A stretch of DNA of 64,000 nucleotides from NCBI RefSeq assembly GCF_058153355.1, contig NZ_CM177019.1. One strand, 5' to 3'. Positions 280 through 26,081 of this stretch are shown piece by piece. Numbering within the stretch: position 1 is the first letter of the stretch; every line of letters starts with the position of its first letter. A program made the translations under genes and the position numbers. The notes below the pieces were generated by a model, which saw only the letters and a program-made list of their open reading frames with translations, was not told the DNA's origin and did no database searches.

Positions 280-810
280 ATGGCTATCACTGGCATCTTT
301 TTCGGCAGCGACACCGGTAATACCGAAAATATCGCAAAAATGATTCAAAAACAGCTTGGTAAAGACGTTGCCGATGTCCATGACATTGCAAAAAGCAGCA
401 AAGAAGATCTGGAAGCTTATGACATTCTGCTGCTGGGCATCCCAACCTGGTATTACGGCGAAGCGCAGTGTGACTGGGATGACTTCTTCCCGACTCTCGA
501 AGAGATTGATTTCAATGGCAAACTGGTTGCGCTGTTTGGTTGTGGTGACCAGGAAGATTACGCTGAATACTTCTGTGACGCATTGGGCACCATCCGCGAC
601 ATCATTGAACCGCGCGGTGCAACCATCGTTGGTCACTGGCCAACTGCGGGCTACCATTTCGAAGCATCAAAAGGTCTGGCAGATGACGACCACTTTGTCG
701 GTCTGGCTATCGACGAAGACCGTCAGCCGGAACTGACCGCTGAACGTGTAGAAAAATGGGTTAAACAGATTTCTGAAGAATTGCATCTCGACGAAATTCT
801 CAATGCCTGA
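280..810 (+). CDS. fldA: Flavodoxin 1 (176 aa)
   Basis: ORF 163..810; internal ATG at 280 preceded by AGAGG gives [20 protein letters not shown]..., the flavodoxin N-terminus and expected length. Confidence 0.95.
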
Positions 811-1015
811 TGTGATGCGGCGTAGACTCATGTCTACGCCGTATTAATAGATAATGCCAATCAAAATAATTGCTACAAATTTGTAACTTTTGCTGTTGTA
901 CCTGTACAATGTCCCGGTGTTCAAGTGGCCTTGCCGTTGTAAATGTAAGCTGTGCCACGTTTTTATTAACAATATTTGCCAGGGACTTGTGGTTTTCATT
1001 TAGGCGTGGCAATTC

Positions 1016-1034
1016 TATAATGATACGCATTATC
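1016..1034. promoter_or_regulatory. Fur box in the uof-fur promoter/leader region (autoregulation)
   Basis: TATAATGATACGCATTATC closely matches the GATAATGATAATCATTATC Fur consensus and lies immediately upstream of and overlapping the uof start. Confidence 0.55.
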
Positions 1035-1106
1035 TCAAGAGCAAATTCTGTCACTTCTCCTAATGAAGTGAACCGCTTAGTAACAGGACAGATTCCGCAT
1101 GACTGA
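1020..1106 (+). CDS. uof: uof, 28-aa upstream ORF translationally coupled to fur
   Basis: MIRIISRANSVTSPNEVNRLVTGQIPHD in ORF 870..1106; its 3' end overlaps the fur ATG at 1099. Confidence 0.75.
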   Translation: MIRIISRANSVTSPNEVNRLVTGQIPHD

Positions 1107-1545
1107 TAACAATACCGCCCTAAAGAAAGCTGGCCTGAAAGTAACGCTTCCTCGTTTAAAAATCCTGGAAGTTCTTCAGGAGCCGGACAACCATCACGTC
1201 AGTGCGGAAGATTTATACAAACGTCTGATCGATATGGGTGAAGAAATTGGTCTGGCTACGGTATATCGCGTACTGAACCAGTTTGACGATGCTGGTATCG
1301 TCACCCGCCACAATTTTGAAGGCGGTAAATCCGTATTTGAACTGACACAGCAACATCACCACGATCACCTGATCTGCCTCGACTGCGGCAAGGTTATCGA
1401 ATTTAGTGATGATTCCATCGAAGCGCGTCAGCGTGAAATTGCCGCCAAACATGGCATTCGCCTGACTAACCACAGTCTCTATCTTTACGGTCACTGTGCC
1501 GAAGGCGATTGCCGCGAAGATGAGCACGCGCACGAAGGCAAATAA
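1099..1545 (+). CDS. fur: Ferric uptake regulator Fur (148 aa)
   Basis: MTDNNTALKKAGLKVTLPRLKILEVL...; C-terminal HHHDHLICLDCGKV metal-binding region; correct length. Confidence 0.97.
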   Translation: MTDNNTALKKAGLKVTLPRLKILEVLQEPDNHHVSAEDLYKRLIDMGEEIGLATVYRVLNQFDDAGIVTRHNFEGGKSVFELTQQHHHDHLICLDCGKVIEFSDDSIEARQREIAAKHGIRLTNHSLYLYGHCAEGDCREDEHAHEGK

Positions 1546-1560
1546 GCCAGCCTGAACGAG

Positions 1561-1588
1561 AAAAGCCAACCTGCGGGTTGGCTTTTTT
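1561..1588. terminator. Bidirectional rho-independent terminator between fur (+) and chiQ (-)
   Basis: AAAAGCCAACCTGCGGGTTGGCTTTTTT: GC-rich hairpin flanked by an A-run on one side and a T-run on the other. Confidence 0.6.
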
Positions 1589-12159: not shown

Positions 12160-13407
<1,248 letters not shown>

Positions 13408-13502
13408 CATGCCTGCAATCTGGGAAACCGGGGTAGAAAAAAACTTGCAGGCCATAACAGTATCTACGCAGCTCCTGCAATATATTGAATTTTCATGCTT
13501 TT

Positions 13503-17860: not shown

Positions 17861-18005
17861 GGTCAATCATCCTGTTAGCAATATGCTTTAAGTTTACAGG
17901 ATTTTTACCCCCAAGGGCTGATAACGCTCATACTGGTCACAACGGCAGCAAAGCATTACACTATGCGCCCTGCATTCCTGGCTACTATTTCGCAAGAGCA
18001 AGTCG

Positions 18006-19430
18006 ATGACCAAAAAACTCCATATTAAAACCTGGGGCTGTCAGATGAATGAGTACGATTCATCGAAGATGGCCGATCTGCTGGATGCCACCCACGGCTA
18101 TCAACTGACCGACGTGGCGGAAGAAGCGGATGTGCTGCTGCTGAACACCTGCTCAATCCGCGAGAAGGCTCAGGAAAAAGTCTTCCATCAGTTGGGTCGC
18201 TGGAAACTGTTAAAAGAGAAGAATCCAGACCTGATTATCGGCGTCGGCGGCTGCGTGGCATCGCAAGAAGGCGAGCACATTCGCCAGCGCGCCCACTATG
18301 TTGATATTATTTTTGGGCCGCAAACGCTGCACCGTCTGCCGGAGATGATCAACTCCGTGCGCGGCGATCGCAGCCCGGTTGTAGATATCAGCTTCCCGGA
18401 AATCGAGAAGTTTGACCGTCTGCCGGAACCGCGTGCCGAAGGACCAACCGCGTTTGTCTCCATCATGGAAGGCTGCAATAAATATTGCACCTACTGTGTG
18501 GTGCCTTACACCCGTGGTGAAGAGGTAAGCCGTCCTTCCGACGATATTCTGTTTGAGATTGCCCAGCTTGCGGCTCAGGGCGTGCGTGAAGTCAACCTGC
18601 TCGGTCAGAACGTGAACGCCTGGCGTGGTGAGAACTACGACGGCACCACCGGATCGTTTGCCGATCTGCTGCGTCTGGTTGCGGCGATCGACGGGATCGA
18701 TCGTATTCGCTTTACCACCAGCCATCCGATCGAATTCACCGACGATATAATCGAGGTGTACCGCGACACGCCGGAGCTGGTGAGCTTCCTGCATCTGCCG
18801 GTTCAGAGCGGTTCCGATCGCATTCTAAACCTGATGGGACGTACCCACACGGCGCTGGAGTACAAAGCGATCATCCGTAAATTGCGTGCGGCGCGTCCTG
18901 ATATTCAGATCAGTTCTGACTTCATTGTCGGCTTCCCGGGCGAAACCACCGAAGACTTCGAAAAAACGATGAAGCTGATTGCCGACGTCAATTTCGACAT
19001 GAGCTACAGCTTTATCTTCTCCGCTCGTCCAGGAACGCCTGCCGCCGATATGGTTGATGATGTTCCGGAAGAAGAGAAGAAGCAGCGTCTGTATATTCTG
19101 CAAGAGCGCATTAATCAGCAAGCGATGGCATGGAGCCGCCGTATGCTCGGCACCACCCAGCGTATTCTGGTAGAAGGTACATCGCGTAAGAGCATCATGG
19201 AGCTTTCCGGTCGTACTGAAAATAACCGCGTGGTCAACTTCGAAGGTACGCCGGATATGATCGGTAAATTCGTCGATGTAGAAATTACCGACGTCTACCC
19301 GAACTCTCTGCGCGGTAAAGTGGTGCGTACTGAAGATGAAATGGGTCTGCGCGTGGCAGAAACACCGGAATCGGTGATTGCCCGTACCCGCAAAGAAAAT
19401 GACCTGGGCGTGGGTTATTATCAGCCGTAA
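18006..19430 (+). CDS. miaB: tRNA-i6A37 methylthiotransferase MiaB (474 aa)
   Basis: Radical-SAM CxxxCxxC ([11 protein letters not shown]) and N-terminal MTTase cysteines; correct length. Confidence 0.97.
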
Positions 19431-22079: not shown

Positions 22080-23618
22080 ATGGCTTTTGCCTCATTAATT
22101 GAACGCCAGCGCATTCGCCTGCTGCTGGCGTTATTATTCGGTGCCTGCGGAACGCTGGCCTTCTCTCCTTACGATGTCTGGCCTGCGGCGATTATTTCGC
22201 TGATGGGACTTCAGGCGCTCACCTTTAACCGCCGTCCACTCCAGTCTGCCTCTATTGGCTTTTGCTGGGGATTTGGCCTGTTTGGCAGCGGTATTAACTG
22301 GGTCTATGTCAGCATCGCGACCTTTGGCGGAATGCCTGGCCCGGTTAACATCTTCCTGGTGGTGCTGCTGGCGGCGTATTTGTCGCTGTATACCGGACTG
22401 TTTGCTGGCGTGCTGTCGCGTCTGTGGCCGAAAACCACCTGGCTGCGCGTGGCGATTGCCGCCCCTGCTCTCTGGCAAGTGACCGAGTTTCTGCGCGGTT
22501 GGGTGCTGACTGGCTTCCCGTGGTTGCAGTTCGGCTATAGCCAGATTGACGGTCCGTTAAAAGGACTGGCACCGATAATGGGCGTGGAAGCCATTAACTT
22601 CCTGCTGATGATGGTAAGCGGCCTGCTGGCACTGGCGTTGGTCAAACGCAACTGGCGTCCGCTGGTGGTGGCCGTCGTGCTGTTTGCCCTTCCCTTCCCG
22701 CTACGTTACATCCAGTGGTTTACCCCGCAACCGGAGAAAACCATTCAGGTTTCGATGGTTCAGGGCGACATTCCGCAATCGCTGAAGTGGGATGAAGGCC
22801 AGCTTCTCAATACGCTGAAGATTTACTACAACGCAACGGCACCGCTGATGGGCAAGTCATCGCTGATTATCTGGCCTGAATCGGCGATAACCGACCTGGA
22901 AATTAATCAGCAGCCGTTCCTCAAAGCACTGGACGGTGAGTTGCGTGATAAAGGTAGCTCGCTGGTCACCGGGATTGTCGACGCGCGTCTCAATAAGCAG
23001 AATCGCTACGATACCTACAACACCATCATCACGCTGGGTAAAGGTGCACCGTATAGCTACGAATCAGCCGATCGCTATAACAAAAACCATCTGGTACCGT
23101 TTGGCGAGTTTGTCCCGCTGGAGTCGATTCTGCGTCCGTTAGCACCGTTCTTTGATCTGCCGATGTCGTCATTCAGCCGTGGACCATATATCCAACCACC
23201 GCTGTCGGTAAATGGTATTGAGCTTACTGCGGCTATTTGCTACGAGATCATTCTCGGCGAGCAAGTGCGCGATAACTTCCGCCCGGATACCGACTATCTG
23301 CTGACTATCTCCAACGATGCGTGGTTTGGTAAGTCTATTGGCCCATGGCAGCACTTTCAGATGGCGCGAATGCGTGCGCTGGAGCTGGCGCGCCCGCTGC
23401 TGCGTAGCACCAACAACGGCATTACGGCGGTGATTGGCCCGCAGGGTGAGATTCAGGCGATGATCCCGCAATTCACCCGCGAGGTGTTGACCACTAATGT
23501 GACGCCGACTACCGGACTCACACCGTACGCACGTACCGGCAACTGGCCGCTGTGGGTACTGACGGCACTGTTTGGTTTTGCCGCTGTGTTGATGAGACTG
23601 CGAGCACGTCAACGTTAA
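22080..23618 (+). CDS. lnt: Apolipoprotein N-acyltransferase Lnt (512 aa)
   Basis: Polytopic N-terminal region plus nitrilase-like domain; correct length. Confidence 0.96.
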
Positions 23619-23722
23619 TGTGAATGATGCACTGGCCAGCAAAATCGCATCATTTTTGCAGGCCAGATAAACTGTTCACACCACATCCGGTATCAACAAA
23701 ACGTACTTTCTCATTGAGCTGT

Positions 23723-23750
23723 GGGGCGTGATTATCATGCCCCTTTTTTT
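23723..23750. terminator. Bidirectional terminator at the convergent 3' ends of lnt and the rhomboid gene
   Basis: GGGGCGTGATTATCATGCCCC hairpin followed by TTTTTTT; overlaps the rhomboid gene stop codon. Confidence 0.6.
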
Positions 23751-25626
23751 ACGGTTCAGGGATACAAGCCACATCGCCATATTGGGGATGCCGAATAATT
23801 GCCTGCGGATCAAGCGAGCGCGTCCTGTCCATTTGGATTAACCCGTTCTTCGCCATAACAAATATCTTTCTACCATCCGCTGAAAAACGAAGATGATTAA
23901 CGTAGCTGGCAGGATAAACGCCAATAATCTGCCCGGCATTAATATTGAGCAGGATGACATAACCTTGCAGGCCATATGACACCAACGCTAAATACTGACC
24001 GTCCGGGCTAATACCCTCAACAGAATAAACGCTCCTGCTACACCATTGCGTCATAATGCTGGCTTGTTGATCCCCTGTGCTTATACGTGAAATCCCCTGA
24101 CTATCGGCAAAAATAACCTCACCATTTTTTGGTCGGAATCCCATCGCAGAAACGACACCACGCGCATCACCTGCGGGAAAGTCTTCTTTCTGATGCGTGA
24201 TGGTATTGATCCGCACGATGTTACCTCTGCCTGCTCCTGGAACCAGTAATGTTTTTTCATCCGGGGAAAGTGCCATAACCCAGGCGCCTGGTTTACCGCT
24301 CGTCCCCGTCCCGTCGTATTTCTCCAGTGCGATATCCGCCACATGCTGATAAGTCACCAGATCAATCGCTGACACACTATTACTGGTGCGATTCATCACC
24401 CAGGCTTTTGTGCCATCACGCGAGAGGATAAGGCTGTCAGGATGGGCGCCGGTGGTAATCGACTGAATAATCTCCCCCGTCGCCACGTTAACGACCGATA
24501 ATGCATTCGCTTCAAATGAAGTCGCATACAGCAACTTTTCATCGGGGCTTAACACCAGCGATCTGACGCCCTGATCTTTACAGCCACCACAATGTTTGAC
24601 TGACTTTTCTTTCGCTATGGGCGCTGTAAAGGTATGCAGGATTTTCTTTTGTCCGAGGTCGAAAACAACAATACTGTTCGTGTTTTCAATTGCGGCATAT
24701 AACGTATTACCATCCCGATTGATCGCCATATCATGGATATCGGCAATCTCAGCGAGCAAATCACCACTGGCCTGTTCACGACTTACCGGAGCGGATAATG
24801 TTTCCCTGAGGGCATTGCGTTCCTCCGCTAACTGCTGCTTTTTATGCCGTCGCTCTTGTTCAATCTCCTGCGGATAAAACTCTTCACGCAGGCTTTGCCT
24901 GACCTGCAAAACTGATTCATCAATCTGCTGCTGCACAAGCCAGATAGCCCCGGTCAGTAGAAGACTACCCGCAACAATAATCCCACCTTCCGTAACGAGC
25001 CGGTTTTGCCCAGATAAACGCGCACTCAGCCAACCCAACGCTCCACCTGCCATCAGGCCGCCAATGTGGCAAGCGTTATCTATTCCTGCTTGCCGGGCAC
25101 CATACAACAGTGTCAGCGCCACCATACCCAACAGAGAAAATACTCGCCGCTGGTTTTTATGGTGTGTACCCGCACCTGAAGAAAGCTGTGTTGCTATCGC
25201 AGCGCCAGCTATTCCCATAATTGCCCCGGATGCCCCAACGCTGATGACTATCTGCTCACTTTCGCGTAACGCATAACAGGCGCTGATGAGCCCACCAAAG
25301 ATGCCGGAGAATAACCAGATAATCAGGAGTCGCCATTTCCCCAGTATCCGTTCCGCCACTGTCCCCACCACCAGGAGTGCAAACATATTCATCAGCAAAT
25401 GGGAAAAACTACTGTGCAGAAAAACACTGCTCAATAAGCGCCAGGGTTCACCCGACAACGTGAGAGAGGCAACGTTAGCGCCGAGATGGATGAGTGCGGA
25501 TTGATCGACTTCTTCATAACTCATCCATTGTGCGAGGTAACAAAATATCCCAACACATAGCGCAAAAAGGATCAGGGTTATTGCGGGTAATTGAACATTT
25601 AACGGCTTAACCGAAGATGCAGACAT
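23749..25626 (-). CDS. Rhomboid-family intramembrane serine protease fused to a C-terminal YVTN-type beta-propeller domain (about 625 aa)
   Basis: ATG at 25626 after AAGGAAG gives MSASSVKPLNV...; rhomboid motifs WRLLSSVFLHSSFSHLLMNM, GASGAIMG (Ser) and ACHIGGLMAG (His); 7th TM helix, coiled-coil linker, then repeated ...LYAAIENTNSIVVFDL / LYATSFEANALSVVNVATG / AWVMNRTSNSVSAIDL blades. Confidence 0.8.
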   Translation of the reverse strand: MSASSVKPLNVQLPAITLILFALCVGIFCYLAQWMSYEEVDQSALIHLGANVASLTLSGEPWRLLSSVFLHSSFSHLLMNMFALLVVGTVAERILGKWRLLIIWLFSGIFGGLISACYALRESEQIVISVGASGAIMGIAGAAIATQLSSGAGTHHKNQRRVFSLLGMVALTLLYGARQAGIDNACHIGGLMAGGALGWLSARLSGQNRLVTEGGIIVAGSLLLTGAIWLVQQQIDESVLQVRQSLREEFYPQEIEQERRHKKQQLAEERNALRETLSAPVSREQASGDLLAEIADIHDMAINRDGNTLYAAIENTNSIVVFDLGQKKILHTFTAPIAKEKSVKHCGGCKDQGVRSLVLSPDEKLLYATSFEANALSVVNVATGEIIQSITTGAHPDSLILSRDGTKAWVMNRTSNSVSAIDLVTYQHVADIALEKYDGTGTSGKPGAWVMALSPDEKTLLVPGAGRGNIVRINTITHQKEDFPAGDARGVVSAMGFRPKNGEVIFADSQGISRISTGDQQASIMTQWCSRSVYSVEGISPDGQYLALVSYGLQGYVILLNINAGQIIGVYPASYVNHLRFSADGRKIFVMAKNGLIQMDRTRSLDPQAIIRHPQYGDVACIPEP

Positions 25627-26081
25627 AAGGTGATTCTTCCTTGAAAAGACAGGTAAAAAAGCATTTTTCCCGTGTGCAGTTATCATCCCGGCAAACGTCC
25701 CATACCGAAAAGTTAACTCTGTCCGAAATATGACTTTTTCAGCCTGAAATTACAATCGTAATTAATTCACCCCTAAGTATTTTTTGGCATGTAAGTTGCT
25801 TTATTTACTGTGTAAGCAATGAAATCAGCCGCAACGCAACCGGGTTGCACCAACACAAATCAGCGGTAGCACCAAAAAGGTGCGGTTTAAGAGTTTTGCT
25901 TCGGAATGGTGCGGCGCATCTCGCAAAAACAAACAATAAAACATCAATATCTTTACATTTAACCAAACTAAATGTTACCTAACAAACACAACACTGCACA
26001 ATAAAGTTGCAGATGATAACAACACAAACACTCACAACGGGTATCCATGCGTTCTTAACGCAGAAGATAAAGGAGTTGGAT

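Follow-up and report, generated by a model that had tools for sequence, protein, structure and literature searches.

The regulatory leader of Escherichia coli fur and the conservation of its uof reading frame and hairpin in Enterobacterales

The fur leader and its K-12 counterpart

Fur is the master iron regulator of enterobacteria. The leader of its gene offers a textbook example of layered feedback, in which Fur autorepression, an OxyR/SoxS input, RyhB and an upstream open reading frame (uORF) come together. According to Vecerek et al. 2007, as reviewed in PMC7534054, PMC12683245 and PMC6191717, translation of fur is linked to that of the 28-amino-acid uORF uof, and RyhB blocks initiation at uof, with less Fur as the outcome. 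Owing to a UCA codon, translation of uof depends on the Fe-S enzyme MiaB (PMC11448259). At the level of transcription, ybfE, fldA, uof and fur are co-transcribed in an operon fed by three promoters (PMC4161252). Puof is located just as upstream of the uof ORF (PMC7867234, PMC6191717), and the Fur box has been stated to lie on the -10 element of Pfura (PMC7867234). In Yersinia enterocolitica, uof is absent, and a related element, TATAATGAGACGCAATTGA, lies over the -10 of fur (PMC7867234). A comparable arrangement, cited beside uof in PMC7534054, is the action of GcvB on thrL: here, too, a short uORF sets the downstream gene and an sRNA acts on initiation at the uORF. Unlike leader peptides such as thrL, however, the uof leader has no attenuator terminator, and coupling is by the stop/start overlap AUGACUGA (fur AUG 1099-1101, uof UGA 1104-1106) rather than by transcription attenuation.

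The interval analyzed here, in a window of 64 kb (the whole stretch of DNA under study), is the regulatory leader of E. coli fur; it is already annotated and offers nothing new on E. coli. The window carries the end of ybfE, fldA, uof, fur and, on the minus strand, chiQ and chiP, which is the K-12 order reversed. A preliminary description of this DNA had placed a 28-amino-acid uof with its end 8 nt inside fur (1099-1106) and had named the K-12 annotation as a check. Reading of the ORFs returned exactly these coordinates, and the aligned position in the K-12 RefSeq record is occupied by uof (b4637), annotated as 'RyhB-regulated fur leader peptide'. The K-12 uof/fur (b0683) locus has the same synteny (ybfE-fldA-uof-fur-chiQ-chiP), ORF length, 8-nt overlap and Fur box. 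The uof frame, which reads MIRIISRANSVTSPNEVNRLVTGQIPHD (28 codons), reaches 81.3 bits with NCBIfam NF011344 'fur leader peptide' (equivalog; cut-off 71) and is covered from residue 1 to 28 of 28; peptides of the Enterobacter type (55.6) and Kluyvera type (34.5) fall below this cut-off. The Fur protein scores 309 bits against NCBIfam NF006999 (cut-off 146) and is 100% identical to the Fur proteins of E. coli and E. albertii. Of 5426 complete E. coli genomes, 5424 contain the region (95-100% identity), and uof carries an annotation in all E. coli genomes among the matches listed. The coordinates of the features are collected in Table 1.

Table 1. Features of the fldA-fur region, in window coordinates.
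Feature	Position	Strand	Description
fldA (flavodoxin 1)	280-810	+	ORF; annotated fldA at the aligned position in K-12 and in strain MEI003
GC-rich hairpin after fldA	817-841	+	GCGGCGTAGAC-TCAT-GTCTACGCCG; no T-run behind
Distal sigma-70-like promoter, Puof candidate	881-910	+	TTGTAA-18 nt-TACAAT; 9/12 in promoter scan
Proximal fur promoter	993-1021	+	-35 TTTTCA 993-998, 17-nt spacer, -10 TATAAT 1016-1021
Fur box	1016-1034	.	TATAATGATACGCATTATC; 16/19 against consensus
uof	1020-1106	+	28-codon upstream ORF; ATG 1020-1022, TGA 1104-1106
GAGCAA	1039-1044	+	Complementary to RyhB U42-C47, including G44 and C45
Conserved RNA hairpin	1051-1071	+	UCACUUC, loop UCCUAAU, GAAGUGA; minimum-free-energy folds
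fur Shine-Dalgarno AGGA	1085-1088	+	In block AACAGGACAGATTCCGCATGACTGA, invariant or nearly so; anti-SD duplex -4.0 kcal/mol
fur	1099-1545	+	148 aa; ATG at 1099
Terminator-like hairpin after fur	1565-1588	+	GCCAACC-TGCG-GGTTGGC, then TTTTTT; read from sequence

Across positions 811-1110, the sole difference from K-12 MG1655 is a T-to-C change at 1059, which turns codon 14 of uof from TCT (Ser) in K-12 into CCT (Pro) here. The stretch with the Pro codon (1030-1089) occurs exactly in 393 of the 5424 E. coli genomes. We considered this substitution as a disruption of uof and ruled it out: the reading frame stays open, and the changed base is a loop nucleotide of the leader hairpin. One difference in the 300 positions of the fldA-fur region, set against only 95.8-97.7% identity to K-12 in the aligned blocks of the whole window, points to strong constraint on 811-1110.

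Two other intervals of the window depart from K-12 more visibly. Between umpH (nagD) and asnB, an insertion of approximately 1.28 kb (12186-13463) encodes a 326-amino-acid transposase of the IS110 family (Pfam DEDD_Tnp_IS110, Transposase_20); its size and length recall those of IS621. Between lnt and gltI, where K-12 has IS5D, approximately 2.4 kb (23603-25977) do not align to K-12 and encode a protein of 645 amino acids that combines a rhomboid domain at the N-terminus with beta-propeller repeats.

Fur box, promoters and transcript classes

The preliminary description had also reported a near-consensus Fur box across the uof start codon, to be checked by motif scoring. The box lies exactly at 1016-1034, with the ATG of uof inside it, and shares 16 of 19 positions with the consensus GATAATGATAATCATTATC. 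No other site on either strand of the 64 kb has three or fewer mismatches; the shuffle expectation is 0.02 (any such site in 2 of 100 shuffles). Among all 19-mers of the window, the box also scores highest, with 16 matches on the plus strand and 15 on the minus strand; the next best score elsewhere is 15. The consensus itself has ATG at positions 5-7, and the coincidence of the box with a start codon is therefore in part a consequence of the motif.

The promoter that this box covers is the strongest sigma-70 match of the intergenic region (10/12 in the promoter scan), and its GTTTTCA and CTATAATGA elements vary little or not at all among 31 species. The box overlaps the -10 TATAAT of this promoter, and thus Fur repression of the proximal promoter is expected: iron-loaded Fur on 1016-1034 would repress it, in an autoregulatory manner. 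Autoregulation of fur has been reported (cited in PMC12683245). In this respect, the locus resembles the Fur boxes over the -10/-35 elements of iron-repressed genes, as a palindromic 16/19 box lies over a -10 hexamer. It differs from them in two ways: the target is the regulator's own gene, and the box holds the start codon of a uORF, usable only by transcripts initiated upstream.

This last point follows from the geometry of the site. The final two bases of the -10 hexamer double as the first two of the uof ATG (TATAAT-G), and the predicted proximal transcription start, at approximately 1027-1030, lies downstream of the uof AUG; published Pfur starts have likewise been placed inside the uof ORF (PMC7867234, PMC6191717). 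The start codon of uof is therefore a physical component of the -10 element as well as of the Fur box. A transcript begun at the proximal promoter would lack this codon and could not encode uof, and fur on it would need direct initiation. Coupling, in turn, could operate only on longer transcripts, from Puof or by read-through from fldA/ybfE. We thus infer two classes of fur mRNA: a long class that contains uof and can couple, and a short class without uof that would initiate at the fur Shine-Dalgarno sequence. The coupling through uof would then be confined to one of the two classes. The overlap matters for the use of uof as a model, since start-codon mutations at A1020 or T1021 would strike the promoter and the operator too.

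The candidate source of long transcripts, the distal promoter, sits in a block (GCTACAAATTTGTAACTTT ... CTGTACAAT) that is near-invariant across 14 Enterobacteriaceae, and may be the published Puof. The near-invariant block as a whole (842-911) contains, besides this promoter, AT-rich repeats (ATAG...CAAT...ATTG) that resemble an OxyR-type site; judged by its sequence, it is probably the published Puof/OxyR-activated promoter. A weaker Fur-box-like 19-mer, GATAATGCCAATCAAAATA, lies inside the same block at 850-868 (14/19); scores of 14/19 occur at four sites in the window, and this one is not significant alone.

The ends of the flanking genes carry hairpins of their own. The arms of the hairpin at 817-841 change together across genera (alignment A7), and it may act as a partial terminator. 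Behind fur, the hairpin with its T-run has the form of a terminator, and it is absent from the output of the consensus scan.

Together, these features very probably describe a leader that acts on two levels, with the Fur box on the proximal promoter operating on DNA, and uof coupling and RyhB operating on RNA, on the transcripts that start upstream. What the two levels do is drawn from the literature and not from the sequence, and this applies to Fur binding, to uof-fur coupling and to the RyhB effect alike.

Coupling of uof to fur and pairing with RyhB

On the two-level reading, transcripts started upstream, at the distal promoter (approximately 881-910) or by read-through from fldA/ybfE, would carry uof. 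Ribosomes translating uof would pass the hairpin at 1051-1071 and the ribosome-binding region of fur, and would end at a UGA just five nt past the fur AUG, which would promote initiation at fur. RyhB, made when Fur is inactive, would pair near the 5' end of uof and so lower the translation of uof and hence of fur. The relay of RyhB control from uof to fur, which the preliminary description had proposed, is the published mechanism as set out in PMC7534054, PMC12683245 and PMC6191717; as its interpretation coincides with the published model, the finding was already known.

The match of uof to a Shine-Dalgarno sequence is weak (-3.6 kcal/mol). Predicted structure near the fur Shine-Dalgarno sequence and AUG is weak as well, with GGA 1086-1088 pairing with UCC 1094-1096 in the fold, and the fold of the short leader is not more stable than that of shuffled sequences (z = -0.96). 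The UCA codon in the window is codon 6 of uof (1035-1037). By collinearity with K-12 (blast map and annotation), miaB, whose product is a tRNA methylthiolase said to render the decoding of this codon iron-dependent, would lie at approximately 18000-19430, some 17 kb from uof. In a fold of the longer interval 990-1130 (z = -2.2), UUUAGGCG (999-1006) pairs with CGCCCUAAA (1116-1124, fur codons 6-9) and closes the uof leader; most other genera have GCATTAAAG at the 3' site, and conservation of this pairing is therefore doubtful.

We evaluated RyhB complementarity with 25-nt target windows paired against RyhB nucleotides 30-69, with a background drawn from the whole window. The RyhB sequence used as the query has matches of 100% identity in E. 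coli genomes, and the K-12 record places ryhB at approximately the same locus. Locally, the leader pairs best with RyhB through GAGCAA and U42-C47 (-12.1 kcal/mol). When UGAUAC 1021-1026 with G60-A65 and UGUC 1049-1052 with G38-A41 are included, the composite duplex has an energy of -14.9 kcal/mol. For comparison, random 25-nt windows taken from the 64 kb average -9.0 +/- 3.5 kcal/mol, and their 5th percentile is at -15.1. The predicted complementarity is thus weak and lies within the range of this background, and RyhB control rests on published experiments. The pairing register is also not kept across genera. We discarded RNAduplex runs of RyhB against targets of 100-230 nt, which returned -27 to -51 kcal/mol in the form of meaningless end-to-end duplexes. 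Prediction tools have likewise failed to reproduce the published RyhB-uof model (PMC3018821).

Inversion of RyhB G44/C45 abolishes repression of both uof and fur (Vecerek 2007, as cited in PMC6191717), and these two bases fall within the segment complementary to GAGCAA. RyhB also lowered the short fur mRNA and not the uof-fur mRNA (PMC6191717), which indicates that RyhB may act by more than one route. RyhB might accordingly pair mainly with the part of the leader that both transcript classes share (approximately 1039-1052), and bring about decay, or a translational block, of the short fur mRNA that lacks uof, instead of working through translation of uof. The position of the GAGCAA core, downstream of the predicted proximal transcription start, fits this proposal. 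We nevertheless regard it as less likely: the best composite duplex uses 1021-1026, beside the uof AUG and expected to be missing from the short transcript, and the G44/C45 mutant of RyhB is reported to lose repression of uof translation itself (PMC6191717, PMC7534054). Moreover, mRNA level and translation are different read-outs, so that both routes can coexist.

The leader hairpin and the uof frame across Enterobacterales

Within uof, minimum-free-energy folds give a 7-bp stem (1051-1057 with 1065-1071) around a loop at 1058-1064. As an attenuator terminator this hairpin was ruled out, since no T-run follows it. The arms differ among genera in a way that maintains the stem: CACUUC/GAAGUG in Escherichia, Citrobacter and Enterobacter, ACUUCC/GGAAGU in Kosakonia, Pluralibacter and Klebsiella, GCUCC/GGAGC in Atlantibacter, and CGCUCA/UGAGCG in Cedecea. 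We built a covariance model, R1, from 12 sequences in register, and searched with it at E<=0.02; at E<=1, the search took in minus-strand matches to the palindromic stem. R1 matches 53 loci, with pairing in 89.9% of cells and compensatory change at 5 of 8 pairs, counts that lean towards structure because the alignment is fitted to the model. In the controls, 0 of 500 shuffles reach these values, and pairing with a slid partner falls to 33-53%. RNAalifold returned zero pairs from an ungapped 42-nt alignment of 28 species, because the 5' arms are misaligned when the loops differ in length. When 780-1650 was compared with Rfam at E<=10, no family came close to its gathering score over the leader.

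We assessed the conservation of uof itself in 80 Enterobacterales loci, obtained by scanning species-representative genomes with the Fur protein. The sequence TATAATG is present in 72 of the 80 species, most of which also have TATAATGA-ACGCATT. From its ATG, 36 species have an ORF of 28-30 codons with the 8-nt overlap; these include Escherichia, most Citrobacter, Enterobacter, Leclercia, Kosakonia, Phytobacter, Kluyvera, Pluralibacter gergoviae, Pseudescherichia and Siccibacter. In 24 species, the ORF stops 18-76 nt upstream of fur, and in 12 it overlaps fur by ATGA, reads into fur or runs without the usual stop. The preliminary description had made its interpretation depend on the conservation of uof. 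That expectation stands for the 36 species, and does not hold for the Salmonella-type loci, Klebsiella and others, in which the ORF is broken. Therefore, the result is neither conservation throughout nor a clean loss, and uof is a lineage-restricted uORF.

In Salmonella-type loci, some Citrobacter, Klebsiella/Raoultella, Atlantibacter and others, the frame is shifted by leader-length changes of a single nucleotide. The leader is 1 nt shorter in S. enterica subsp. arizonae and also in four loci with a 150-amino-acid Fur; we take a Fur of this length to be that of Salmonella enterica, and the four loci are thus presumably Salmonella. The missing nucleotide falls in the hairpin loop, as does the difference from K-12 at 1059. 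With the loop of the Salmonella type, the same ATG opens an ORF of 16 codons that stops 27 nt before fur. The hairpin, in turn, is kept in species with a broken uof.

These observations bear on whether uof is under selection as a coupled reading frame or is largely a by-product, open wherever loop length allows, with most Fur made from short Pfur transcripts and coupling a minor, lineage-specific addition. On the by-product view, the ATG exists because the -10 hexamer and the Fur-box consensus spell TATAATG, which is indeed kept twice as widely as the coupled ORF (72 against 36 of 80). The frame-shifting length changes in several genera agree with it, as do the Pfur starts that both papers cited above place within uof. 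In addition, the block from the fur Shine-Dalgarno sequence to the AUG is invariant also in species without uof, and conservation of the peptide is limited to its overlaps with the Fur box (MIRII / MRRII) and with the ribosome-binding region of fur (EVNRLATGQIPHD). The middle of the peptide varies freely, and the UCA codon is CCA, CTN or TCG in many genera. However, published fusion and mutation experiments have found that fur translation depends on uof (PMC6191717, PMC12683245, PMC7534054). The ATG frame is also far poorer in stops than its two alternatives: in Enterobacteriaceae, a leader has on average 0.38 stops in the ATG frame, whereas the other two frames average 3.0 and 1.04. Similarly, 32 of 34 distinct leaders in the uof register are open, compared with approximately 54% after the middle was shuffled, a difference that shared ancestry inflates. 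Finally, leader lengths of 79, 82 and 85 nt (28, 29 and 30 codons) keep the register across genera. Given this evidence, we consider a by-product origin improbable, and favor a coupled uof in the lineages that have kept it.

A further possibility, which we advance tentatively, is that the ancestral, selected core consists of the two-promoter architecture and the covarying hairpin, and that uof is a labile overlay, with the RyhB-uof-fur relay being lineage-specific. If this is true, then 1-nt changes in loop length would make or break uof, for example between E. coli and Salmonella-type loci. The hairpin would then be an RNA element, without a family entry, that regulates the fur mRNA in cis, and would possibly act on stability, on presentation to Hfq/RyhB or on ribosome stand-by. 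The contrast between a leader hairpin that is general in Enterobacterales and a coupled ORF that is not bears on the reach that is assumed for the RyhB-uof-fur relay.

In some genera, the ATG of TATAATG is in frame with fur and could give rise to an N-terminally extended Fur, and in others it opens a frame with a 4-nt ATGA overlap with the fur start. The loci behind these cases are L057, L058, L060 and L063 (Buttiauxella, Dryocola and relatives), and L022, L054 and L065. Taken with the coupled cases, they indicate that the same promoter-embedded ATG occurs in all three registers relative to fur.
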